Below, one piece after another: positions 25,718-39,546 of a DNA stretch of 64,000 nucleotides. Each line of letters starts with the position of its first letter. The first letter of the stretch is position 1. The notes beneath the pieces were generated by a model. The model saw nothing but the letters and a program-made list of their open reading frames with translations. It was not told the origin of the DNA and made no database searches. The position numbers and the translations under genes are program-made. Origin of the DNA: Clostridiales bacterium UBA1206 (lineage in GTDB: Bacteria; Bacillota; Clostridia; Oscillospirales; CAG-382); contig DBXS01000034.1 in the NCBI GenBank assembly GCA_002310055.1, positions 69,153 to 133,152 of the forward strand, written 5' to 3'.

Positions 25718-26683
25718 TTATGCCCAGTACATTCCGCCGGGACGCTCTTCTATGCGGCATTCCTTAAGGAACGCCACAGCCTTTGCTAACCCTTCATAGG
25801 TCGTCATAAGCGAATCCTCGTGCTCTATGGAAAGCACGTCGTCGTAGCCGACCATGCGCAGATTTGAAACGAAATCCTTCCAGTACTGGTAGCCGTTGCC
25901 GTAGCCCACGGTACGGAATATCCACGAACGGTGTATCTCGTCGGAATAGTGTTTGGTGTCGAGCACGCCGTTGATACCGGTATTGATAGCGTCGACCTTG
26001 GTATCTTTGGCATGTACGTGATAGATCGCTTTTCCCAGATATCTTATCGCCGCGACGGGATCGACCTGCTGCCATATAAGATGCGAGGGGTCGAAGTTGG
26101 CACCGATGATCTCGCCGACTTCGTTACGGAGCTTCATAAGCGTTTCGGGATTATAAACGCAGAAACCGGGATGCATTTCGAAAGCGATCTTTTCTATGCC
26201 GTGCTTGGCGCAGAATTCGGCTTCTTTTTTCCAGTAGGGGACGAGCACTTCTTTCCATTGCCAGTCGAGTATGGCGAGGAAATCTTCGGGCCAGGGGCAG
26301 GTCACCCAGTTGGGATATTTACTGTCCTTACAGTCGCCGGGGCAGCCGGAAAAGCCGATTATCTTCTTTATGCCGAGCTTTTCGGCAAGAAGGACGGCGT
26401 TTTCGAAATCGGTGTGGAACTTGTTTGCGATCTCTTTGTTCGGGTGCAGGGGGTTGCCGTGGCACGAAAGGCAGTTGAGTTCGATCCCGTATTTGTCGAA
26501 CGCTTTTCTGAACTCGGTGATCTTGTTTTCGTCTGCAAGCAGCTTTGCGGGGTCGCAGTGCGCTTTTCCGGGATATCCGCCTGCACCGATCTCCGCGGCT
26601 TCTATGCCTGCGTTTTTAAAATATTCAAGAGCTTTGTCAAGTGGTCTGTCGCCGAGCAAAACGGCGCATACGCCTATTTTCAC
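25718..26683 (-). CDS. sugar phosphate isomerase/epimerase (xylose-isomerase-like TIM barrel)
   Basis: 321 aa. Overall resemblance to AP-endonuclease-2/xylose-isomerase-like TIM barrel proteins (IEHEDS near the C-terminus). Confidence 0.7.
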   Translation of the reverse strand: MKIGVCAVLLGDRPLDKALEYFKNAGIEAAEIGAGGYPGKAHCDPAKLLADENKITEFRKAFDKYGIELNCLSCHGNPLHPNKEIANKFHTDFENAVLLAEKLGIKKIIGFSGCPGDCKDSKYPNWVTCPWPEDFLAILDWQWKEVLVPYWKKEAEFCAKHGIEKIAFEMHPGFCVYNPETLMKLRNEVGEIIGANFDPSHLIWQQVDPVAAIRYLGKAIYHVHAKDTKVDAINTGINGVLDTKHYSDEIHRSWIFRTVGYGNGYQYWKDFVSNLRMVGYDDVLSIEHEDSLMTTYEGLAKAVAFLKECRIEERPGGMYWA

Positions 26684-26686
26684 GGT

Positions 26687-27790
26687 TTATTCCTCCTCGT
26701 CAAAGTAATAGGGCTTGCCGGTCTTTGCGGAAGTATAAATGCCGTCGAGTATGCGCGATACGCAGTACGCCTGTTCCGCGGTGCAGAACGGGGTCTTGTC
26801 GTTGATAACCGCTTCGATCCAAAGCCTTGCTTCGTGGTGGGAAGCGTCCTCGTTGCCGTTGGCGTCATAGAAATCCGCGCCGCCCGCGTTGAGGTTGGGT
26901 TTCATTACGTACTGTCTGCCGTTGAGCACGCCGTTGAAACGGAGACCGTCGTTCATATCGAGACCGCCGTCGGTACCGCAGAGAGTGGTGACTGCTTCAC
27001 GCGAGTCGAGTATGTTGAGCGCCCACGAGGATTCGAGTATAACAGTCGCGCCGTTTTCCATCACTATAAAGCCGAACGCGGCGTCTTCAACGGTGAATTC
27101 TTCTTTTTTCCATTCGCCCCAGGCGTTGCCGGTGGGGAACTTGTCGCCCAGTTTCTTGAACGTGGTGCCTACGCAGTATTTGGGTTTGTAGTTATCCATA
27201 CACCAGAGCGTAAGGTCGAGCGCGTGCGTGCCTATATCTATGAGCGGACCGCCGCCCTGTTCGTATTCGTTGAGGAACACGCCCCAGGTGGGAACGGCTC
27301 TGCGGCGGATAGCCGTGGCTTTTGCAAAGTAGATTTCGCCGAGCGTGCCTTTTTCGCATTCGGTCTTGGCAAAGAGCGAATCGGGCCTATGGCGGTTCTG
27401 ATAGCCTATGGTGAGCTTTTTGCCGGTGCGTTTTGCGGCGTCGACCATTTTTTTGGCTTCCGCGGCGTTGATAGCCATAGGCTTTTCGCACATAACGTGC
27501 TTGCCGGCTTCGAGCGCGTCGACAGTGATGAACGAATGGCTCCTGTTGGGAGTGCAGACGTGTATTACTTCTATGGATTTGTCTTTGAGGAGTTCCTTAT
27601 AGTCTTTATAAACTTTGGCGTCGGGCGTGCCGTAGCGCTTTGCGGCGGCTTCGGCTTTTTCCACGATAATATCGCAGAAAGCGACAATTTCTACGTTAGG
27701 GAGCGAATGCAGAGAAGGAAGGTGCTTCTGGTTTGCGATACCACCGCAGCCGATGATACCGATGCGAACTTTTCTTTCGGGCATGGTCAA
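26687..27790 (-). CDS. Gfo/Idh/MocA-family NAD(P)-dependent oxidoreductase
   Basis: VRIGIIGCGGIANQKHLPSL Rossmann N-terminus and the EKPMA motif. Confidence 0.88.
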   Translation of the reverse strand: MTMPERKVRIGIIGCGGIANQKHLPSLHSLPNVEIVAFCDIIVEKAEAAAKRYGTPDAKVYKDYKELLKDKSIEVIHVCTPNRSHSFITVDALEAGKHVMCEKPMAINAAEAKKMVDAAKRTGKKLTIGYQNRHRPDSLFAKTECEKGTLGEIYFAKATAIRRRAVPTWGVFLNEYEQGGGPLIDIGTHALDLTLWCMDNYKPKYCVGTTFKKLGDKFPTGNAWGEWKKEEFTVEDAAFGFIVMENGATVILESSWALNILDSREAVTTLCGTDGGLDMNDGLRFNGVLNGRQYVMKPNLNAGGADFYDANGNEDASHHEARLWIEAVINDKTPFCTAEQAYCVSRILDGIYTSAKTGKPYYFDEEE

Positions 27791-27845
27791 ATCTCCTTTA
27801 TTTTGGTTTATATAAATTATATCACTATTCGCAAAAATGTCAATA

Positions 27846-27879
27846 CAAAAAGAACATCCCGCACAAAAATGTGCGGGAT
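27846..27879 (-). terminator. rho-independent terminator after the yccF-like gene
   Basis: The minus strand reads atcccgcacatttttgtgcgggat followed by gttcttttt. Confidence 0.7.
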
Positions 27880-27889
27880 AGAATGCGTT

Positions 27890-28246
27890 TTATCTGATCT
27901 TCGCTCCGAACGGGCAAAGGGCGAGCAGAGCGAGTTTTAAGCATTGCAGACCGAACGGGATCCCTATAATGGAAATGAAGAATATGAACGCCGCCACGCA
28001 GTAGATTATGGCGAGCCACCAGCCGACAAAGAACAGCCATAACAGGTTCATAATGGGGTGCGACCCGAAATCCGGATCCACGTCCGAGCCGAAAGGCAGG
28101 AACGTGAGACGTGCGAATTTCAGGCATTGTATCCCAAACGGGATCCCTATGATAGTCAAGCAGAGCAGCAGGCCGGATATCAGCCATATCAGCGCGGGGA
28201 TGAAGCCGACAAGTAAGATCCAGAAAATATTGCCGATAATACTCAT
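27890..28246 (-). CDS. YccF-domain inner membrane protein
   Basis: 118 aa with an internal duplication of the IIGIPFG(I/L)QC(L)K(F/L)A motif. Confidence 0.85.
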   Translation of the reverse strand: MSIIGNIFWILLVGFIPALIWLISGLLLCLTIIGIPFGIQCLKFARLTFLPFGSDVDPDFGSHPIMNLLWLFFVGWWLAIIYCVAAFIFFISIIGIPFGLQCLKLALLALCPFGAKIR

Positions 28247-29949: not shown

Positions 29950-29978
29950 TTGACAATTCCGTTTTGTTGTGATATTAT
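29950..29978 (+). promoter_or_regulatory. sigma-A-type promoter for tRNA-Arg (TTGACA-17-TATTAT, TGTGa extended -10)
   Basis: ttgacaattccgttttgttgtgaTATTAT, 25 nt upstream of the tRNA. Confidence 0.6.
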
Positions 29979-30002: not shown

Positions 30003-30079
<77 letters not shown>

Positions 30080-30080
30080 T

Positions 30081-30119
30081 GCAAAAAGCGTCTTTTGTCA
30101 AACAAAAGACGCTTTTTGC
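30081..30119 (+). terminator. terminator hairpin after tRNA-Arg (perfect 17-bp stem)
   Basis: gcaaaaagcgtcttttg-tcaaa-caaaagacgctttttgc. Confidence 0.65.
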
Positions 30120-30281: not shown

Positions 30282-30310
30282 TTGACAAATTTGTCGATTT
30301 GTGCTATATA
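30282..30310 (+). promoter_or_regulatory. sigma-A-type promoter for the pilus-like operon (TTGACA-17-TATATA, TGTGc extended -10)
   Basis: ttgacaaatttgtcgatttgtgcTATATA, about 70 nt upstream of the first prepilin ATG. Confidence 0.6.
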
Positions 30311-30380: not shown

Positions 30381-30902
30381 ATGCATCGTCGTATAGGCAA
30401 ACGGCCGGTATCTTTAAGACGCGGCGTTACGCTTGTGGAACTCTGTATAGTGCTTGCGCTTATTTCCGTTGTTACGGTGATGGTCACTTCGTTTACCGTG
30501 CTCACGCGTTCTTACGCGTATAAGGCCTCGCGCGAAAACGGCATACGCCTTTCGCTAAACGCCGTAGAGCACGCGTTCGACACCTGGGTTTCCGCTTTTG
30601 ACGATTCCGATAATGAGTTTTCCGCCGATGGAAGCGCTTTAAACGTGAACACAACAGAAACTTTGCGATTTGATGACAATGCTAAGCGCTTTACTGGTTC
30701 GACAGATAAATACGACATTGCGATAGACTTTGATGTTGAAAATATTGAAAGCGTCAGTTTCAGTATCGAAGGATCTAATGGAGCTGTCTGCCTTATAAAA
30801 TGTGAAGTTACGTATATTCTTGATGACGGCGTAGAAGAAACGATCGCTTTTCTTCGCGCGACGCGCGCAGCTAAGAAAGCCGTAACTGAGGGAGGCGATT
30901 GA
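30381..30902 (+). CDS. prepilin-type N-terminal cleavage/methylation-domain protein (pilin/pseudopilin 1)
   Basis: 173 aa. A basic 15-aa leader MHRRIGKRPVSLRRG is followed by VTLVELCIVLALISVVTVMV, with Glu at +5 and a hydrophobic helix. AAGGAG RBS. Confidence 0.75.
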   Translation: MHRRIGKRPVSLRRGVTLVELCIVLALISVVTVMVTSFTVLTRSYAYKASRENGIRLSLNAVEHAFDTWVSAFDDSDNEFSADGSALNVNTTETLRFDDNAKRFTGSTDKYDIAIDFDVENIESVSFSIEGSNGAVCLIKCEVTYILDDGVEETIAFLRATRAAKKAVTEGGD

Positions 30903-30903
30903 T

Positions 30904-31281
30904 ATGGGGATATTCAAGCGCCTTTTCAGGAAAAAGAGTCACTGCGGCAAGCGCGGCATGACTGTAGGCGAAGTGATAATCGCGATCGCTGTTATCGTTA
31001 TAGTCACAATCTCCGCCGCTTATACCATCCGTATGAGCGCCTCGGCGACCTCCCGTGATTTCAACTACGAGCGAGCTCGCATTGCCGCCAGAAATTCTTT
31101 GGAAGAGTTCAAGTATTACGATACAACAAGATATGTGGAACAGTTCGGCGATCATTATACGGAGCAGTTCGGCAACTATACGTTATATATCTATATCGAG
31201 GTTTCACGCAACAACTACAAAGCTTGGATCACTTACGACGGTGAAAGTAATTTGCTGTTAGATTATACCAAAGGCGGTTAA
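30904..31281 (+). CDS. prepilin-type protein (pseudopilin 2)
   Basis: 125 aa. An 18-aa basic leader ...HCGKRG is followed by MTVGEVIIAIAVIVIVTISAAY (Glu at +5). 1-nt gap to the upstream gene. Confidence 0.65.
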   Translation: MGIFKRLFRKKSHCGKRGMTVGEVIIAIAVIVIVTISAAYTIRMSASATSRDFNYERARIAARNSLEEFKYYDTTRYVEQFGDHYTEQFGNYTLYIYIEVSRNNYKAWITYDGESNLLLDYTKGG

Positions 31282-31282
31282 T

Positions 31283-31690
31283 ATGTTAAAGAATAAAAAG
31301 GGGATCGCAATTGAGACCGCGGTCTTTATGATGATAGTCATCTTTGCGCTATGCACGTTAATTGTGACAATAACGTTGTATTCGCGGCAGCATTCAATAA
31401 AAGCGAATAACGATTTTATAAACCGCGTTAATCTTGATAAGGTGGGCGAGAAGTTTATTGCTGCTTTAAATGCTGCTTTAAAAGAGAATAACGACGCCGA
31501 TTCGTTTGATTTCGACGGAAAAGTATATTCGATCATTTCCGACGGCAACGAACGCATTCTTACCGTTTACGACGATAACGGCAAAGTGGTACTTAACGTC
31601 GTTGCGGAGCCTGACGGTGGCAATTATACAATAAAACGCTGGAGCTGTTTTGAAAAAGCGAGCGAAACTTCGGCGAATCCGGGAGAATAA
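31283..31690 (+). CDS. pseudopilin-like protein 3 (ComGG-like minor pilin?)
   Basis: 135 aa. MLKNKKG then IAIETAVFMMIVIFALCTLIV, where Glu is at +4 if cleavage follows Gly. The C-terminal ...YTIKRWS recalls the ComGG tail. Confidence 0.5.
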   Translation: MLKNKKGIAIETAVFMMIVIFALCTLIVTITLYSRQHSIKANNDFINRVNLDKVGEKFIAALNAALKENNDADSFDFDGKVYSIISDGNERILTVYDDNGKVVLNVVAEPDGGNYTIKRWSCFEKASETSANPGE

Positions 31691-31701: not shown

Positions 31702-32919
31702 ATGGCTGTTAACAATTCATCTTGCATATATATCGACACCCGCGACAAGGCGGTGCATTATTACGGCTCGGTCGGCGGAAGAGCGGTGCACGACGTCGCC
31801 AATTATAATTCGCGCACGCTCGACAGCGCCTTCTTCAACGATTTTACCGAGATACTCGTCGGGTTTATGCGCAAGTATACCCCGGCGCAGGCCGCCAATT
31901 CCACAGTCATACTGCCGGATTCCGTCATTATGACCGATATCATCACGCTGCCCGCGATGAAAAGCAATATTATGCGCGGCACCGTGGAATCGACTCTTTC
32001 CGGCCTTTATAAAAACCGCAAGGAACTGCGGCTCAACACGTTTTACGCCCTGCAGAACAGGCAATATTCAGAAGTGTGCATCTGCGGCGTAAAGGAACTT
32101 CTGATTTCTGCCGTAAAGAACTCCTGCGTCACTTCGCGTTTCAACGCGCAGAACATAACTTTTGCCGCCGAAACTTCGGCGCGCGCCGCCTCCGCGCTCA
32201 ATTCCAAGCTCAAAGGCGCGACGTATCTGCTTTTGGATATCAAAGAGACCTATACCCGCGTGGTTTACGTTTACAAAGGAATGTCTCTTGGCTTTTCGGC
32301 ACTGCCTTTCGGCTATTCCATACTCGAAAAACCCAAGCTCGCGTCCGAGGATATGCTGTTTGACCATTCCGTAGCTGAACTCGCGGTGCTCAACGCGCGC
32401 GAGCGCGCCAAGGCGAGAGCGGTCACGTTTATAGGCGAAGGCATAGTCGACGCCACACAGGTCGTGATACCGCAAAATGACGAAAACGACGAAAACGGCG
32501 AAGAAGACGACGACGCGTTTTCCGGCGGCGACTTTGCCGATCCGGCGCGTCAGCCCGGCACGGTTTATAAGACTCTGCCCAAGAAATCCGCGCGCAAACT
32601 GCCCAAATATATGCTGCGTCCGACGCCCTCTGCCGACGAAGGCGTGGCTGACGAAAACTTTCGCATTTTCGCCAAATGGGCGCTGTGCTATCTTCAGGGG
32701 AATCCAAAGCTCGAAAGCCTCGCGGGCGCAAAAGCGGTGTACGTCAACCTTCCGGAGCACCTCAATCACGTGATAACCGCTATCAACGAAGAACACAGCG
32801 AAAACAAATATCAGTTCCTGCCCGCGTCGTTCGACACGCGCGACGAGTTCGTGCAGCGCAATATAGAGCTGTACGGCGGACTTTTCGTTGGCGGCAGCCG
32901 GAACAACAACGTCTTTTAA
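31702..32919 (+). CDS. PilM-like actin-fold pilus assembly protein with an acidic/basic disordered insertion
   Basis: 405 aa. VILPDSVIMTDIITLPAMKSNIMRGTVESTL... and YLLLDIKETYTRVVYVYKG...LPFGYSIL follow the PilM pattern. The insertion is QNDENDENGEEDDDAFSGGDFADPARQ...KKSARKLPKYMLRP. Confidence 0.55.
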   Translation: MAVNNSSCIYIDTRDKAVHYYGSVGGRAVHDVANYNSRTLDSAFFNDFTEILVGFMRKYTPAQAANSTVILPDSVIMTDIITLPAMKSNIMRGTVESTLSGLYKNRKELRLNTFYALQNRQYSEVCICGVKELLISAVKNSCVTSRFNAQNITFAAETSARAASALNSKLKGATYLLLDIKETYTRVVYVYKGMSLGFSALPFGYSILEKPKLASEDMLFDHSVAELAVLNARERAKARAVTFIGEGIVDATQVVIPQNDENDENGEEDDDAFSGGDFADPARQPGTVYKTLPKKSARKLPKYMLRPTPSADEGVADENFRIFAKWALCYLQGNPKLESLAGAKAVYVNLPEHLNHVITAINEEHSENKYQFLPASFDTRDEFVQRNIELYGGLFVGGSRNNNVF

Positions 32920-32933
32920 GGATCGTACGCGTT

Positions 32934-33737
32934 ATGATCATATCTGTTACCGATCCGTTTTATCTGACCGTTGCGTATATACTCTGCGGTCTGTTGGGAC
33001 TTTGCGTGGGCAGCTTCCTCAACGTAGTCATTTACCGAGTTCCGCTTGGGATGAGCGTGGCGCGCCCCGCGTCGCACTGTCCGGTCTGTTCGGCAAAGAT
33101 ACGCCTGTACGACAATATACCAATCGTTTCGTATATTTTGCTCGGCGGCAAATGCCGCAGCTGCAAATGCCGCATTCCGTTCAGATATACAGCCGTGGAG
33201 GCGCTTAACTGCGCGTTGTGGCTGCTGTGCGTACTCGTTTATCACACCAATCTGATCTTTATGATCATTTCGTGCGCCGTCTGCTCGGTGTGCATATGCG
33301 TTTTCTTTATAGATCTCGAGCATATGATAATCCCCGACCGCTTTCAGGTGATACTCGGAGTTCTCGCCGTTACAAGCGTGTTTTTCGATACCGAATACGA
33401 CTGGCTTTCACATCTTATAGGACTCGCAGCGGCGCTTGTCGTATTCATCGCGGTGGGATACGCGGTGAGCAGGTATAAAAAGCGCGAATCGCTCGGCGGC
33501 GGCGACATAAAATTTGCCGCCTGCGCCGGACTTCTGCTCGGCTGGCAGAGGTTCATACTTATGATGCTCATCGCATCCGTGAGCGCAAGCGTCGTGCTGC
33601 TTATCAAATCAAAACGTTCAAAAGACGAAACGTCTAAAGAATACCCGTTCGGGCCTTTCCTCGCAACGGGCGCCGTATTGGCACTGCTGTTCGGTCATTA
33701 TGTGATCGAATGGTATATTAAGCTGCTTGTCGGCTGA
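32934..33737 (+). CDS. pilD: prepilin peptidase (A24 family, PilD/ComC type)
   Basis: Internal ATG at 32934. GLCVGSFLNVVIYRVP, the Zn-finger CPVCSAKIRLYDNIPIVSYILLGGKCRSCKC, and GGGDIKFAA (catalytic Asp motif). Confidence 0.9.
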   Translation: MIISVTDPFYLTVAYILCGLLGLCVGSFLNVVIYRVPLGMSVARPASHCPVCSAKIRLYDNIPIVSYILLGGKCRSCKCRIPFRYTAVEALNCALWLLCVLVYHTNLIFMIISCAVCSVCICVFFIDLEHMIIPDRFQVILGVLAVTSVFFDTEYDWLSHLIGLAAALVVFIAVGYAVSRYKKRESLGGGDIKFAACAGLLLGWQRFILMMLIASVSASVVLLIKSKRSKDETSKEYPFGPFLATGAVLALLFGHYVIEWYIKLLVG

Positions 33738-33767: not shown

Positions 33768-34979
33768 ATGCAGCAATTCAAATACACGGCTATCAATCTT
33801 CAAAACGAAAAGATAACGGGCAACTTCATCGCCGCCGACGAGCAGGATCTCGCGGTCCAGCTTTCCAAGCAGGGGCTGTATCTGCTTTCCGCAACTCCGT
33901 ACAGCGGCAAGTCGCCTTCCGCGTTCTTTACTACCGGTACCGGCAAAGTCAAACTTTCCGAACTCACGGCGTTCTGCCGCCAGTATTCCATAATGCTTAA
34001 TTCCGGCATATCGCTGCTTAACGGTATAGAGATATTGAAAGAGCAGAGCTTTTCGCGCTATTTCAGGTCTCTCTTGCAAGTCGTTTACGAAGACGTCAAG
34101 ACCGGCGTGATGCTTTCCGACGCGATGGCGAAGCACAAGCGCGTTTTCCCGGATTTCTTTCGCAGTATGATAAAAGTCGGCGAGCTCGGCGGAAGGCTCG
34201 ATATCGTTATGAATTCGCTTGCCGATTATTACGAGCGCGACAGGGCGATAAAGAAAAAAGTCAGCAGCGCTTTCGCTTACCCCATAATGCTGGCGCTGAT
34301 GACGGTCGGCATCGTCGTCCTTATGCTCGCGTTCGTCATACCCACGTTCCGCAAAACGTTCGCCGAGCTGAATATGGAAGTCACCGGACTGACCAAAGCG
34401 GTGTATTCGATTTCTGATTTTCTAATGAATTACTGGGCGTTTATGCTTTTGGGCGTCGTGCTTCTGGTGGGTATATTCCTTATAGTCAGAAAGACAAAAA
34501 AGGGAAGGTATTTCATCGACTGGTACAAAATGCACGGCCCGTTCGTAAAGAAAGTCTACCGCGAACTTATTACCGCCCGATTTGCAAGAGGTTTCGGCCT
34601 GCTGCTTTCAAGCGGTATGGATATGACCGAGGCGATGAAATCGGTGGTCATAGTTTTCGGCAATAAATACGTCGAAGAACGCTTCAACAAAGCCGCTGAC
34701 GACGTCTGCCACGGCGTTTCGCTCGCCGTCGCTTTCGACAGGCAAAAGCTGTTCCCGGACATTATGCTGCAGATGATCGCCATAGGCGAACGCACCGGTT
34801 CGCTCGACGAAGTGCTCACGCGCTCCTGCACTTTCTTCGACGACGCCGTTGAGACAACGCTCACGCGCGTGACGACCAGGATACAGCCCATTATGCTCGT
34901 TATACTTGCCATTGTCGTGGCGCTGCTGTTCCTTGCAGTATACTCTCCTATGCTTTCAATAATGAACGTCCTTCACTGA
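33768..34979 (+). CDS. pilC: type II secretion system F-family platform protein (PilC/ComGB type)
   Basis: 403 aa with two T2SSF repeats (SGISLLNGIEIL..., MIKVGELGGRLD / MIAIGERTGSLD). Confidence 0.9.
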   Translation: MQQFKYTAINLQNEKITGNFIAADEQDLAVQLSKQGLYLLSATPYSGKSPSAFFTTGTGKVKLSELTAFCRQYSIMLNSGISLLNGIEILKEQSFSRYFRSLLQVVYEDVKTGVMLSDAMAKHKRVFPDFFRSMIKVGELGGRLDIVMNSLADYYERDRAIKKKVSSAFAYPIMLALMTVGIVVLMLAFVIPTFRKTFAELNMEVTGLTKAVYSISDFLMNYWAFMLLGVVLLVGIFLIVRKTKKGRYFIDWYKMHGPFVKKVYRELITARFARGFGLLLSSGMDMTEAMKSVVIVFGNKYVEERFNKAADDVCHGVSLAVAFDRQKLFPDIMLQMIAIGERTGSLDEVLTRSCTFFDDAVETTLTRVTTRIQPIMLVILAIVVALLFLAVYSPMLSIMNVLH

Positions 34980-35012: not shown

Positions 35013-36701
35013 ATGAACATTGATTACGACCTTTTACAGTTTTACGTCTATAAAAGAATAATCGACAGAAAAGACGTCGACGAGATACTTTCGGAAAGCA
35101 AGCGCCTCAAAACGCCCGTGCGTGACTATCTGCTCGCCAAGGAATACACCACCGAAACGACCGAGCTCGAAGCGCTTGCCGAGTATTACTGTATGCCTTT
35201 TATAGAGCTCGATATGCTCGATATCGACCAGACGCTGTTCGAACGTTTTTCTTTCGACTATATGAAGAAAAACAAGTTCATACCGGTAAGTATCGAAAAG
35301 AACGGCGTACTCATAATTGCGGTAGGCAAACCGCTCGATTTCAACGCTATGACCGCGTACTCCGCCGCTTTTGACTGTCCCGTTGATTTTATCCTCACGC
35401 CGCCCATACAGATCGACCGTTATATCGATTCCATCGCAACTGTCATTTCCACGTCCGACGCGTTGAAGGATATAAACACCGAAAACGACGACCGTCTGTT
35501 TGCGGGGCTCCGGAACGCCACCGCTTCCATATCTTCCGCCGACGACGTGGTGAACAATCCGTCTGTCCGGCTCGTCGATTCTATTATAAAAGAAGCCATA
35601 CCTTACCGCGCGTCCGATATCCATATTGAACCGTTTGAAAAACGCGTACGCGTGCGTTACCGTATAGACGGCGACCTGCAGGAACGCGCCAATTTCCCGA
35701 TCGAAGCGTACCCCGCGATATGCGCCCGCATAAAGATAATGGCGGGGCTTAATATCGCCGAACGCCGCGTGCCGCAGGACGGCAGGATCAATATGCGGAT
35801 AAGCGGCAAGGATTACGACTTTCGCGTTTCGTCGCTGCCTTCGGTCCACGGCGAAAAGTTCGTTATACGTATACTCGATAAATCTTCGTTCCGGTTCACA
35901 CGTTCCGAACTCGGCTTCACCGACGAGGAAAACAAGATAGTCGATAAAATGCTTATGCGCCCGCACGGCATAATCCTGCTCACAGGCCCCACCGGATGCG
36001 GTAAATCCACAACGCTTTACTCTTTCCTCAAAGAAGTAAACGTTCCCACCGTCAATATAATCACGGTCGAAGACCCTGTCGAATACACGATGGCAGGGAT
36101 CACGCAGACCCAGGTCAACACCAAGACCAATATGACGTTCGCCACGGCGCTGCGTTCGATACTCCGTCAGGACCCCGATATCATAATGATAGGCGAGATA
36201 CGCGACGAGGAGACCGCCGAGATCGCCGTGCGTTCGGCAATAACCGGCCACCTCGTCTTCAGCACACTCCACACCAACGACGCTCCCGGCGCCGTTACGC
36301 GTCTCGAAGATATGCACGTTCCCGACTATCTCGTCGCGGACGCGCTGGTTGGCGTTATTGCGCAGAGGCTCGTAAAACACCTTTGCCCCGCCTGCAAGAA
36401 GCGCGGCAAGACCAACGCAAAGGAAATGGAAATACTGGGCATTGACGAGCCCGTGAGCATCTACAGGCCGCAAGGATGTCAGTTCTGCAACAACACCGGT
36501 TATAAAGGCCGCGTCGCGATACACGAGATCCTTTATATCGACGAGAATATGAAAAACATCATTGCGCAGAACAAGAACTCCGAATCGCTGCGCACCGCGG
36601 CGGCCCAGAACGGTATGATCAAGCTGTGGGATTCTTGCAGGAATCTCGTTCTTAAAGGGACGACCAGTATTCAGGAACTGATGACGCTCAACATCGAATA
36701 A
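35013..36701 (+). CDS. pilB: type IV pilus assembly ATPase (GspE/PilB family) with N-terminal T2SSE_N domain
   Basis: 562 aa. Walker A GPTGCGKSTT, Asp box, Walker B IIMIGEIRD, His box STLHTND, and a tetracysteine CPACKK...CQFC. Confidence 0.93.
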   Translation: MNIDYDLLQFYVYKRIIDRKDVDEILSESKRLKTPVRDYLLAKEYTTETTELEALAEYYCMPFIELDMLDIDQTLFERFSFDYMKKNKFIPVSIEKNGVLIIAVGKPLDFNAMTAYSAAFDCPVDFILTPPIQIDRYIDSIATVISTSDALKDINTENDDRLFAGLRNATASISSADDVVNNPSVRLVDSIIKEAIPYRASDIHIEPFEKRVRVRYRIDGDLQERANFPIEAYPAICARIKIMAGLNIAERRVPQDGRINMRISGKDYDFRVSSLPSVHGEKFVIRILDKSSFRFTRSELGFTDEENKIVDKMLMRPHGIILLTGPTGCGKSTTLYSFLKEVNVPTVNIITVEDPVEYTMAGITQTQVNTKTNMTFATALRSILRQDPDIIMIGEIRDEETAEIAVRSAITGHLVFSTLHTNDAPGAVTRLEDMHVPDYLVADALVGVIAQRLVKHLCPACKKRGKTNAKEMEILGIDEPVSIYRPQGCQFCNNTGYKGRVAIHEILYIDENMKNIIAQNKNSESLRTAAAQNGMIKLWDSCRNLVLKGTTSIQELMTLNIE

Positions 36702-36722
36702 TTCCAGGGAGGTAAAAAGCCA

Positions 36723-39488
36723 ATGGCGAAACAGCATCTGTACGCCCGCGTGCCCGCAAAACTCAGTATGTTCAATAAAACCGACGGGTACGACACGTTT
36801 GCCTGTTCCGCCGGCATAACCGAGGAATTTGCCGTTAAAGAGCTTTCGTACGTTTGCGATATAAAACTTAATCCGGACGTCGCCGACGACATTCGTTCCG
36901 GAAAGCTTTCTCCGGTTTACAGCCAGTTTTCGACCCGCGACGGTATGCTCGTCCAGAGCTGCGTTACTTATCTTCCGCTCGATTATTCCGGCGAGCGCAG
37001 CACGTATATGGTGCATTCGCTGATCTCCGGAAAAGAAGAATACGTTCAGTTTTTTGCTTCGTTTGAAGACGCCGTCATAAACAAAGACGCGTTCCTTCAC
37101 GATCTTTCGTCTTTCAACGTGACGGATCCTTCGTCTAAATCGGATAGCAGCTATCCCGAAAAGCCGCTCGAACGCGTCAGGTGCGAATCGCAGAACTGGA
37201 TAGCCGAAACGTACGAGCGCGATCTGCTCAGGCGGTTCGTTTATTCCGTCTTTGCCGCGATAAGCGGTAAGATAAAAGGCGTCTTCGTTGCGCTCAAAGA
37301 TACTTCCGAACCGACTTCCGACGGATTTATAAGGTTTATAAATTCGCTGTTCAAAGTCGTGCCGTTCCATCTTCGCCCTGCGCTTTCGTTCGCTACGCGC
37401 GTTATAAATCCCGCGCAGTTTTCGGGAATAAAGCTCAAAGGAATCGCCGCCGGTATTGATACGCTCAAAGTTCCCAAGTGCGCCGTATTCGATTTTGAGT
37501 CCGGCGCTTTTACGGGCGTTAAAGACGACGACGTGAACGCAAATATCCAGGCGGTCGATTTTATCTGCTCGCTGTTCAAAAACGACGCGCTGCGCCGCGA
37601 TTTCCTCACGTTCGCCGATAAAGTCGTCGCCGCGTCTCCCTCGCTCGGCGGAACATCTTTAAATAGTCTTAACGATATAATCTGCCTTTTCCGCTGCGGC
37701 TGCGGCTTTTACGAAGAAAAGGCCGTGCTTCCCAACGACGCAAAACTGCTCGAAGTGTTAGGCGTCTACGAAAGCCACCGCAGGTCGCTCCCCGACGATT
37801 ACCGCGTTACGATAATGCGCAGCGTGAACAGATATCCCGCGTCCAGGATAGAGATACCAAAAAAGATATTTGCAAAACTGCAGAAACTGTACCCCAAAGA
37901 GATCCCCGGGACCAAGCACGTCATAATGAACGCCGTGCTCGACCTCATACACACCGACGCCATGCGCGACAAGCTTTTCGCTTTTATTAAAGCGAATTAC
38001 CGCGACGAAGACGATACTGCAAAAGCCGATATCATCCGCCACCTGTGCAGCGTTTTTTACGGCGGTTTTCTCCAGGCGCAGCTTTTGGAATTCTTTGACG
38101 AATGCTTTGGCGATTCGTCCGGCGAAAGCAGGGACGAGATAATTTCCAAGATACTGCTTGTGATCCGTACCAAATCGCTGTACGATCAGATCACCGCGTT
38201 TCTTAACGCACACTACGGCGAACTGACGCCGGAAAACCGCTCAAAAGTATACGATACCATACTTGAACAGCTGCCCGAAGGCGACGAGCTTGCGTACAGA
38301 CTTATCTGCTTTGCGGACGGTCATATCGAAAGCGAGAACAGCGAATTTGTTTCTTCGTTCGACGCACGGCTTATTAAAGCGGTGAACAAAGAGCAGAGCC
38401 GCGCCAAGCATCCTATGCTTGAAGTGATCTGCAAGACCTCCGGCCACTGTTCAAAAGCGGTCGCGGAATACGTGTTCACCGAATGCGCCGGCGCAAAGAT
38501 ATATGACGAATTCATAAACTTACAGCTTTCGGGTTCGTTTGCTTCTCAAAAGCGCTGTGTCGAATATATGTCCGAATTCTGCGGCGTGAACGACGCGGAA
38601 AAAGCCGTAACGCTTTCCGAAAAAGCGGCGGAAGTCATGCTTAACGCAAAGACCGAATATTCGCTTGGCGAACTTATAGATACCGCAAACGAATTTGACG
38701 GCTCAAGTAATGCGTTTATGTCGCTCGTTTCGCAAAAAGCGCTGTGTCCGCTCGTTTCCGCAAGGCTTACGGACGTGTTCGCGCGAACGGACGGAACTCT
38801 TACCGCGGAAGACGTCGAATCGTTCTGCGAGCGCTTTGCGCAGATAAAAAAAGACGCTCCGTACGGCGTTATCGAGAATTATCTCAACTTTAAAAGCGCT
38901 GTGATTTCGGCGCAGAACGACGAAGTGTTCAAGTACTCGGAAGCGTTCCCTCGCGACAAAAAGCTGCGTTCGCACATAGGCGCATACGCCGAAAAGGATA
39001 TTGCGGAAAAAGTTAATGAAAGCGACGTCATAAGCTACGCATCTTTCCGTTTTGCCGTTTCTTATTTGAAGACCGGCTCTTTCCGCATTGAAGACGCGTT
39101 TGACGAACTGTGCAAGTCGCGCGCTTCGTCAGCAAACGACGAAGACGATATGCAGAACGTTTTCGGTATTGCTGATAAACTTATCGAAGTCTGCGTTTCG
39201 ATCGACTCGAACCAAAGCGTTTCGCCCGAGTTCAGATCGCTCCTAACATATCAGGATTCCGGACTGTACGGAATGCTCGACCAGCTTGCAACGAGGTACG
39301 AGAAGCGCGCCGTCAGGCATCTCGAATCGGTGATAAAGCCGTACGGCGACGAACACGCGGAACTCGTTTCATTCTGCCGCGGAGTCATCCGCCGCAAAAG
39401 AAACACGTCCGGCGGCGTATTATCAGCCGTAGGCAACGCTTTCAAAAAACTCTTTGCCGGAATCAAAGGCGTTTTTACAAAAAAATAG
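36723..39488 (+). CDS. large soluble hypothetical protein, last gene of the pilus-like operon (orphan; possible GAP1-N2-like N-terminus)
   Basis: 921-aa uninterrupted ORF. GGGAGG RBS 8 nt upstream; starts 21 nt after the pilB stop. No signal peptide or TM segment seen. Mostly helical-looking and Cys-containing, with a basic C-terminal tail. Confidence 0.7.
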   Translation: MAKQHLYARVPAKLSMFNKTDGYDTFACSAGITEEFAVKELSYVCDIKLNPDVADDIRSGKLSPVYSQFSTRDGMLVQSCVTYLPLDYSGERSTYMVHSLISGKEEYVQFFASFEDAVINKDAFLHDLSSFNVTDPSSKSDSSYPEKPLERVRCESQNWIAETYERDLLRRFVYSVFAAISGKIKGVFVALKDTSEPTSDGFIRFINSLFKVVPFHLRPALSFATRVINPAQFSGIKLKGIAAGIDTLKVPKCAVFDFESGAFTGVKDDDVNANIQAVDFICSLFKNDALRRDFLTFADKVVAASPSLGGTSLNSLNDIICLFRCGCGFYEEKAVLPNDAKLLEVLGVYESHRRSLPDDYRVTIMRSVNRYPASRIEIPKKIFAKLQKLYPKEIPGTKHVIMNAVLDLIHTDAMRDKLFAFIKANYRDEDDTAKADIIRHLCSVFYGGFLQAQLLEFFDECFGDSSGESRDEIISKILLVIRTKSLYDQITAFLNAHYGELTPENRSKVYDTILEQLPEGDELAYRLICFADGHIESENSEFVSSFDARLIKAVNKEQSRAKHPMLEVICKTSGHCSKAVAEYVFTECAGAKIYDEFINLQLSGSFASQKRCVEYMSEFCGVNDAEKAVTLSEKAAEVMLNAKTEYSLGELIDTANEFDGSSNAFMSLVSQKALCPLVSARLTDVFARTDGTLTAEDVESFCERFAQIKKDAPYGVIENYLNFKSAVISAQNDEVFKYSEAFPRDKKLRSHIGAYAEKDIAEKVNESDVISYASFRFAVSYLKTGSFRIEDAFDELCKSRASSANDEDDMQNVFGIADKLIEVCVSIDSNQSVSPEFRSLLTYQDSGLYGMLDQLATRYEKRAVRHLESVIKPYGDEHAELVSFCRGVIRRKRNTSGGVLSAVGNAFKKLFAGIKGVFTKK

Positions 39489-39501
39489 TGTAAAAATACA
39501 A

Positions 39502-39538
39502 AAAGCCCGAAGTACAACATACTTTCGGGCTTTTTTCT
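39502..39538. terminator. bidirectional rho-independent terminator
   Basis: The arms aagcccgaagt / actttcgggctt form a stem followed by ttttct. It lies between convergent operons. Confidence 0.75.
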
Positions 39539-39546
39539 TTGCCGAC

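Follow-up and report, generated by a model that had tools for sequence, protein, structure and literature searches.

What is a large protein that recalls a family of GTPase partners doing at the end of a type IV pilus (T4P) operon? The question is raised by a stretch of 64,000 nucleotides from contig DBXS01000034.1 of Clostridiales bacterium UBA1206 (the window, to which all coordinates refer unless a locus number precedes them). Here a 921-aa open reading frame (ORF) follows directly on the gene for a PilB-type assembly ATPase, and an earlier note, made from the letters alone, had described it as the last gene of a pilus-like operon with an N terminus reminiscent of the GAP1-N2 domain. We propose that this GAP1-like protein is a peripheral-membrane accessory factor or regulator of a clade-specific T4P machine in gut and rumen Clostridia, a reading that we regard as evenly poised between right and wrong. 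Its GAP1 homology, domain architecture, position after pilB and C-terminal motif are directly supported.

36723..39488, plus strand: GAP1-like gene, 921 aa (ORF call, Pfam, homolog alignment, AlphaFold2 and profile comparison)
36707..36712, plus strand: Shine-Dalgarno sequence GGGAGG (read from the sequence, with counterparts in related loci)
39500..39545, plus strand: intrinsic terminator, hairpin and T-run, between convergent genes (dG -18.4 kcal/mol, z = -4.6)

The ORF listing of the window and the translation both give the reading frame that the earlier note had named, 36723-39488 with an ATG start, and this start is supported because homologs align from M1/A2. The pilB-like ORF (35013..36701) ends with TAA at 36699-36701, leaving the claimed 21-nt spacer before the ATG at 36723, with the GGGAGG ribosome-binding site inside it. 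The hairpin of the terminator lies at ~39500-39535, and none of 200 shuffled sequences was as stable (0/200); a simple scanner had overlooked it because of a one-base bulge. Inside the pilus operon a simple terminator scan found weak sites only, rarer than in shuffled sequence, and the only strong terminator of the operon is indeed the one behind the GAP1-like gene. Convergent aromatic amino-acid genes, recognised by family searches, lie downstream of it.

GAP1 proteins are partners of DO-GTPases in GTPase-centred, predicted conflict systems (Kaur, Burroughs, Iyer & Aravind 2020, PMC7159879); in the literature searched they appear only in that defining computational study, which mentions neither DENN nor longin. 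The resemblance to GAP1-N2 that the earlier note had drawn is, by sequence comparison, real homology. Residues 1-105 match Pfam GAP1-N2 (PF20013) with E = 4.6e-11 and 43.4 bits against a cut-off of 24, and the domain is found in 39/39 aligned relatives. GAP1-M (PF20014) is matched in 31/39 of these (best E 6.8e-10), and residues 159-258 of the query score 14.7 bits against it, under the cut-off of 24. Profile-profile comparison of the family with classical GAP1 (hhalign) gave a probability of 99.9 and E = 1.7e-33 across query columns 2-564, with low similarity past ~330, and the residues Q4, Y7, R9, D24, T25, S29, G74, D87, G90, R92 and H98 are common to both. The GAP1-C region has no Pfam match, and hidden Markov model matches to classical GAP1 end at profile position ~325-363. 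The span homologous to GAP1 comprises the first ~330 residues and possibly extends up to ~560.

36723..37037, plus strand: GAP1-N2 domain, residues 1-105, longin-like beta-beta-alpha-beta-beta-beta-alpha (Pfam, AlphaFold2 secondary structure, Foldseek)
37197..37496, plus strand: GAP1-M domain, residues 159-258, alpha/beta, DENN-core-like (Pfam matches of relatives, hhalign, Foldseek)

The protein had been called an orphan, a description that does not survive wider searches. A protein search of 5.8 billion sequences returned 139 clusters at 90% identity, and the best 120 of these 139 are all 874-959 aa long, all with GAP1-N2 and many with GAP1-M. When 1.84 billion representatives were searched exhaustively with a profile, 333 matched at E<=1e-3: ~60 full-length members (50%-identity clusters) of ~900 aa score above 595 bits, 2 are intermediates, and the remainder, 600-1100 aa long and with ~100-120 bits, cover only profile positions 1 to ~325-363. 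The family comes from gut or rumen Clostridia throughout, and in the 39-member alignment its N-terminal ~600 residues are kept and the distal ~300 far less so. NCBIfam and PDB chain sequence searches with the protein gave nothing meaningful, and neither did its N-terminal profile against PDB. The claim that this is no standard T4P, Com or type II secretion system (T2SS) component stands, as no Pfam or NCBIfam pilus family and no PDB sequence was matched. Literature on the Pfam accessions, on the TagF/DENN link and on Ruminococcaceae pili yielded nothing on the GAP1-like protein.

The pilus-like operon that the earlier note had placed upstream is recognisable from its PilB/GspE ATPase, PilC/GspF platform protein, A24 prepilin peptidase and prepilin-like ORFs:

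30381..30902, plus strand: prepilin-like ORF 1, 173 aa, RRG↓VTLVE (N_methyl and TIGR02532 matches; motif scan)
30904..31281, plus strand: prepilin-like ORF 2, 125 aa, KRG↓MTVGE (motif scan; no family match)
31283..31690, plus strand: pilin-like ORF 3, 135 aa, KKG↓IAIET, Glu at +4 (translation; weak tblastn matches in related operons)
31702..32919, plus strand: "PilM-position" ORF, 405 aa, conserved (found at the corresponding site of related operons, 26-77% identity)
32976..33737, plus strand: prepilin peptidase, PilD (Pfam A24_N_bact and Peptidase_A24)
33768..34979, plus strand: platform protein PilC/GspF (Pfam T2SSF in two stretches; TIGR02120)
35013..36701, plus strand: assembly ATPase of PilB/GspE type with MshEN N-domain (Pfam T2SSE, 456 bits, and MshEN; TIGR02538, TIGR02533)

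The position behind pilB recurs across the family. A locus search with the single protein gave one relative; an alignment-based search was then used, and the resulting sample, collected starting from the GAP1-like protein, holds 80 genome loci and several metagenome contigs. The metagenome-assembled genomes (MAGs) carry labels such as Acutalibacteraceae, Oscillospiraceae, Faecousia, Ruminococcus and CAG:448. In 68/80 loci pilB is directly upstream, in 2 more one ORF lies between, and 10 have no pilB inside 10 kb. The gap from pilB to the GAP1-like gene has a median of 30 nt and is <=60 nt in 53/68, and an SD-like motif precedes the gene in 61/68. The pilB-linked GAP1-like proteins are only 28-63% identical to the query and PilB itself 64-95%; most loci retain the order PilM-position ORF, PilD, PilC, PilB, GAP1-like gene, even where the GAP1-like protein is only ~28-30% identical. 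Genes outside the operon vary between loci, and because these flanks differ it is the unit rather than the neighbourhood that is conserved. The check for synteny with pilB and pilC that the earlier note had suggested is therefore positive.

Some loci depart from this order in detail. Two loci have an additional ORF inserted behind pilB and ahead of the GAP1-like gene: in locus L078 (8395-9942) it is 515 aa long and matches a SAP domain weakly, below threshold, and in L056 (854-2884) it is 676 aa long. In L004 (12702-17429; also in L005) the GAP1-like gene is not the last: a co-directional 1575-aa ORF with a faint N_methyl match and a Big_3-like ORF come after it.

A full-length AlphaFold2 model, built from the 39-sequence alignment, has a mean predicted local distance difference test score (pLDDT) of 88.4, with the solenoid mostly >85. 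In this model residues 1-110 form a beta-beta-alpha-beta-beta-beta-alpha domain, residues 140-270 a second alpha/beta domain, and residues 275-895 ~35 helices arranged as a solenoid. The label "largely helical" is thus right for the solenoid of residues 275-895 and wrong for residues 1-270, where two alpha/beta domains are predicted. For the full-length model, the Foldseek matches were all generic HEAT/ARM proteins (importins, Pds5, adaptor beta subunits) at E ~1e-3 and template-modelling (TM) scores of 0.1-0.2, and for that reason residues 1-300 were modelled separately (pLDDT 88.9; predicted TM-score, pTM, 0.89). Against PDB, the top matches of this second model are folliculin (FLCN; E 1.4e-4) and DENND10 (E 3e-3, TM 0.39, 341 columns); next come TagF structures (E 7e-3 to 1e-2, ~110-220 columns), folliculin again and FNIP2, and then PAS/LOV domains. 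The predicted fold of residues 1-270 therefore bears a resemblance, at modest scores, to a longin plus DENN-type NTPase-regulator module.

37545..39407, plus strand: alpha-solenoid, residues 275-895, with a conserved proximal part (to ~600) and a variable distal part (AlphaFold2, Foldseek, conservation profile)
39414..39485, plus strand: flexible linker and basic amphipathic C-terminal helix, residues 898-921 (…AFKKLFAGIKGVFTKK) (AlphaFold2, family consensus)

The solenoid gives way to a low-confidence stretch at residues 895-905 and a terminal helix of low pLDDT at 901-912. Here the family has the C-terminal consensus GGFFxKLFGKK, present in 110/151 full-length members as a loose pattern and in 92/151 as a strict one. 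Classical GAP1 proteins have the loose pattern in 3/32 cases and the strict one in 0/32, and among the other ORFs of the same loci the counts are 27/1455 and 4/1455 (2 of these 4 are family fragments). The consensus closely resembles KGFLKRLFGG, the membrane-targeting sequence of E. coli MinD. The earlier note had described a soluble, cytoplasmic protein free of transmembrane segments and prepilin motifs. No transmembrane segment is present (the highest Kyte-Doolittle mean over 19 residues is 1.53) and a motif scan found no prepilin motif; given the conserved, basic, amphipathic MinD-type tail, however, "soluble" should probably be read as "peripheral membrane". The protein is probably tethered to the membrane by this predicted C-terminal helix.

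Based on these features, we propose that a MinD-like helix holds the protein to the membrane's inner face where the pilus has its base. The HEAT/ARM-like solenoid would provide a large protein-binding surface for docking on the pilus platform from its cytoplasmic side, where the PilB hexamer, PilC and the 405-aa PilM-position protein are the expected contacts. Once docked, the protein would gate PilB-driven pilus assembly or confine it to certain sites. A conserved polar cluster on the N2 domain (R9, D24, T25, S29, D87, R92 and H98) may serve as the sensing or regulatory site. It is possible, if doubtful, that a bacterial longin/DENN-like module of a kind so far associated with GTPases has here been re-partnered with a hexameric secretion-type ATPase and acts as a membrane-tethered gate or clutch of the T4P motor.

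The linkage was also approached from the side of PilB. A clade-specific DNA pattern for the PilB N terminus, which replaced an earlier PilB-based locus search whose listed matches were mostly distant PilBs, was found in at least 119 stretches, which without exception belong to MAGs of this kind. Among the matches listed, 84 loci have room after a complete pilB; the GAP1-like gene is directly downstream in 45 (~54%) and absent there in 39. Operons without it (GAP-less) are often labelled Christensenellaceae or Eubacteriales (L170, L172, L188, L200, L205, L219, L271, L283, L284 and others), which suggests lineage-specific relocation or loss; in an earlier sample such operons stop right after pilB. 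In the PilB tree seven of them (L091-L097) stand beside L052, L064 and L004, in the region that corresponds to that of the stand-alone copies in the tree of the GAP1-like protein, and another (L089) is nested among the GAP-linked loci L046 and L047. Co-occurrence of a stand-alone gene and an operon was checked in one MAG only, UBA11477 (DPQS01), in which a GAP-less operon (L225) co-exists with a stand-alone copy at another locus (L062); this single genome favours relocation over loss in its lineage. The distribution of the family coincides with that of a single PilB clade (>=64% identity); PilB loci farther off (<=58% identity, Streptococcus sanguinis among them) are without the gene.

Several observations weigh against a role dedicated to the pilus motor. 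Among the matches listed, ~46% of the sampled operons of this PilB clade have no GAP1-like gene downstream, and 10/80 loci place the gene in housekeeping contexts such as ackA-x-gene-pepF. For these two reasons the GAP1-like protein is an accessory component tied to one PilB clade and not a core component of every operon. The hosts all belong to one Clostridia group, so part of the synteny is shared ancestry. A promoter-like site within the operon (9/12 matches, 36156-36184) is a possible internal promoter. The longin/DENN matches have modest scores (TM <= 0.39) and no sequence match to any solved structure, and for this reason we treat the likeness as fold-level resemblance and not as membership. 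Finally, the signature residues of N2 are conserved in proteins linked to DO-GTPases and to PilB, NTPases of unrelated class; PilB-specific contacts are therefore unlikely to be made by these residues, and a GTPase partner encoded elsewhere could be accommodated.

Could the adjacency, then, be historical? The protein would in that case have a role unrelated to pili, for example at the membrane in envelope or division processes, and its gene would simply trail the operon at its 3' end in a single lineage. The housekeeping loci, the operons that lack the gene and the kinship of the carriers all fit such an account, and so does the most basal relative, P0170, which is stand-alone. Five of the loci (L041, L063, L065, L072 and L075) have a common pattern of ORF sizes, ~157 aa, ~398 aa, GAP1-like gene and ~600 aa; in L041, the only one of the five annotated by Pfam, the gene follows DUF212 (PAP2-like), acetate kinase and a short unannotated ORF and precedes a Peptidase_M3 gene (PepF-type). 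In one other stand-alone locus it stands behind glgC/glgD-like genes. However, the position after pilB persists to ~28-30% identity with short gaps while the outer flanks are unconserved, the family matches a single PilB clade in its distribution, and the stand-alone copies are nested among pilB-linked ones in a neighbour-joining distance tree (drawn without support values). We consequently hold a purely historical adjacency to be improbable. Two longer basal relatives, of 1233 aa (L074, 10001-13702) and 1121 aa (L080, 9944-13309), have no pilB nearby; the former adjoins an 892-aa leucine-rich repeat (LRR) protein of BspA type on the opposite strand.

The nearest outgroups located are the classical GAP1 genes of L087 and L088, in which the GAP1 start overlaps the stop of a DO-GTPase gene. 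Both clusters (L087, 507-12234; L088, 1138-7440) contain vWA, a small ORF, DO-GTPase and GAP1, and L087 has in addition a tubulin gene and a further ORF upstream; this cluster is separated by ~1.5 kb from the S10 ribosomal protein operon, and a single gene on the opposite strand lies in the interval. Such vWA/tubulin clusters fit the firmicute theme of GAP1 systems, and tubulin, HSP70 and kinase themes make up 76% of N2 neighbourhoods (PMC7159879). The main text of that study mentions neither pili nor PilB, and the part of its supplementary material represented by one supplement has no PilB-, PilC- or GspE-type name.

The locus studied here has none of these associations. The earlier note had seen no GTPase partner, and tblastn with two DO-GTPases indeed found nothing in the 64-kb window; a tubulin query of the window was likewise empty. 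Among the Pfam-listed neighbours in the related loci examined (L001-L005) there is no DO-GTPase, and among Pfam-listed neighbours there is no FNIII, tubulin, HSP70, kinase or other variable partner. Because this context is absent, we call the protein GAP1-like and not a member of a GAP1 system. Since the nearest outgroups hold the same gene position behind a DO-GTPase, which is another P-loop NTPase, the exchange of DO-GTPase for PilB points to partner displacement. Gene order would thus suggest that the protein was recruited to the pilus motor.

An alternative is that the protein does not regulate PilB directly but serves as adaptor for a GTPase whose gene lies elsewhere in the genome, be it a DO-GTPase or a Ras-like small one, and couples such a switch to the site or time of pilus assembly, much as MglA does through SgmX. 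The N2 signature of DO-GTPase-linked GAP1 is fully retained, and the gene can function away from the pilus operon. The predicted fold points the same way: longin and roadblock domains serve GTPases as platforms, and longin-DENN modules regulate NTPases (PMC3521125). Against this, no DO-GTPase is encoded in the window or among the neighbours just described, and the coupling of classical GAP1 to its GTPase by overlapping stop and start has been replaced here by pilB. We consider a GTPase adaptor unlikely.

Homology to a component of predicted conflict systems (PMC7159879) also allows for a sensor of conflict, which would inactivate or give up the pilus, or the cell, on detection of pilus-dependent phage or entering DNA, with the distal solenoid as the sensing part. 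In its favour, evolution is much faster in the C-terminal half (conservation ~0.33) than in the N-terminal half (0.5-0.8). T4P are common phage receptors, which likewise counts toward this explanation. On the other side, Pfam and NCBIfam show no effector-type domain in the protein, PADLOC finds no match to known anti-phage defence models, and the variable partners of conflict systems (FNIII, tubulin, HSP70, kinase and others) are missing among the Pfam-listed neighbours. The family is uniformly ~900 aa long, without the domain shuffling typical of conflict systems, and the base composition of the gene equals that of its flanks, with no sign of a mobile island. We find a conflict sensor quite improbable. 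Horizontal acquisition of the gene was considered separately and rejected on the same base composition.

The other parts of the operon and its surroundings require some comment. The label "PilM" for the 405-aa ORF (31702-32919) was not confirmed, as Pfam, NCBIfam and PDB sequence searches gave no match; the ORF could be either a new component or a PilM that has diverged. In ORF 3 (31283-31690) the Glu that follows the putative cleavage Gly is at +4 instead of +5 (MLKNKKG↓IAIET). The window yielded neither a separate gene for a major pilin nor PilT nor another ATPase of PilB type. Directly 5' of the operon, Rfam identifies a tRNA-Arg (ACG) gene at 30003-30079, where a riboswitch or leader had been considered. 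This gene has its own promoter-like site at 29950-29978 (11/12 matches, with TG) and a hairpin terminator at ~30083-30119, and 29950-29978 was accordingly rejected as the operon promoter. Because this strong site serves tRNA-Arg, with its own hairpin, the operon promoter must lie 3' of the tRNA unit, and by its letters it is probably the following site:

30282..30310, plus strand: candidate operon promoter, TTGACA-17 nt-TATATA (read from the sequence; weak evidence)

Farther upstream, a 669-aa ORF with a GTG start (25931-27940, plus strand) has no Pfam or PADLOC match and overlaps the minus-strand ORFs 25718-26683 and 26687-27790.

The GAP1-like gene behind pilB suggests a pilus accessory or regulatory factor that has not been described before, and it adds a conserved large cytoplasmic component to the T4P operons of abundant, poorly studied Clostridia (Oscillospirales and relatives), in whose gut and rumen members pili are linked to adhesion and fibre colonisation. 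It would also make the biochemical role of the GAP1-N2 and GAP1-M domains testable through a machine with easy read-outs, namely piliation, adhesion, twitching and DNA uptake. PilB in the gene position of the DO-GTPase clearly illustrates how one P-loop NTPase can displace an unrelated one as a partner. If the gate or clutch proposal is true, the GAP1 family, so far known by prediction only, gains its first tractable phenotype, and together with TagF and the secretion system of type VI (T6SS) it would point to a broader class, so far unrecognised, of longin/DENN-type regulators that act on the envelope nanomachines of bacteria. The fold link among longin/DENN modules and TagF, if confirmed, bears on the origin of eukaryotic GTPase regulators.

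Comparison with known systems places these features in relation to one another. The tail is like MinD/FtsA-type targeting sequences in that a flexible linker leads to a predicted C-terminal helix that is short, basic and amphipathic, but in the GAP1-like family it is attached to an unrelated protein. Among regulators of PilB, SgmX is a large helical-repeat protein of tetratricopeptide repeat (TPR) type that is activated by MglA-GTP and controls PilB-dependent T4P formation in Myxococcus; FimX and PilZ are cyclic di-GMP (c-di-GMP) proteins, and the MshEN domain binds c-di-GMP. The parallel with SgmX and FimX/PilZ is one of functional analogy only, in that all would be large cytoplasmic repeat-rich or signalling proteins that set the place and time of PilB-driven extension; they are not homologous to the GAP1-like protein, and none is known to carry domains of GAP1 type or to be encoded behind a clostridial pilB. 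Longin-DENN modules of the folliculin/FNIP, DENND10 and C9orf72-SMCR8 type have a succession of a longin-like domain, an alpha/beta domain and then helices like the one predicted here, whereas the similarity is at the level of fold and their partners are small GTPases, none of which is evident here.

TagF, an accessory repressor of the T6SS (PDB 6iz8, 2qnu, 9t0n), has a related fold and regulates its membrane-embedded machine post-translationally without any GTPase. Unlike the GAP1-like protein, with which it has no sequence similarity, TagF is ~210-320 aa long, has neither solenoid nor membrane tail, and serves the T6SS of Gram-negative bacteria. Classical GAP1 differs in its setting and in its C terminus: the NTPase upstream is a DO-GTPase and not the hexameric T4P ATPase PilB, an FNIII-repeat partner or a tubulin/vWA, HSP70 or kinase theme accompanies it, and its neighbourhood is mobile, whereas the gene studied here belongs to a chromosomal pilus operon. 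The C-terminal ~400-600 residues of the GAP1-like protein form a family-specific solenoid that does not align with classical GAP1, and a MinD-like amphipathic tail stands in place of transmembrane segments or effector domains. What the two have in common is the N2 and M domains with the same signature residues, possibly the start of the helical part, a gene immediately behind that of a P-loop NTPase and a predicted site of action at the inner face of the membrane.

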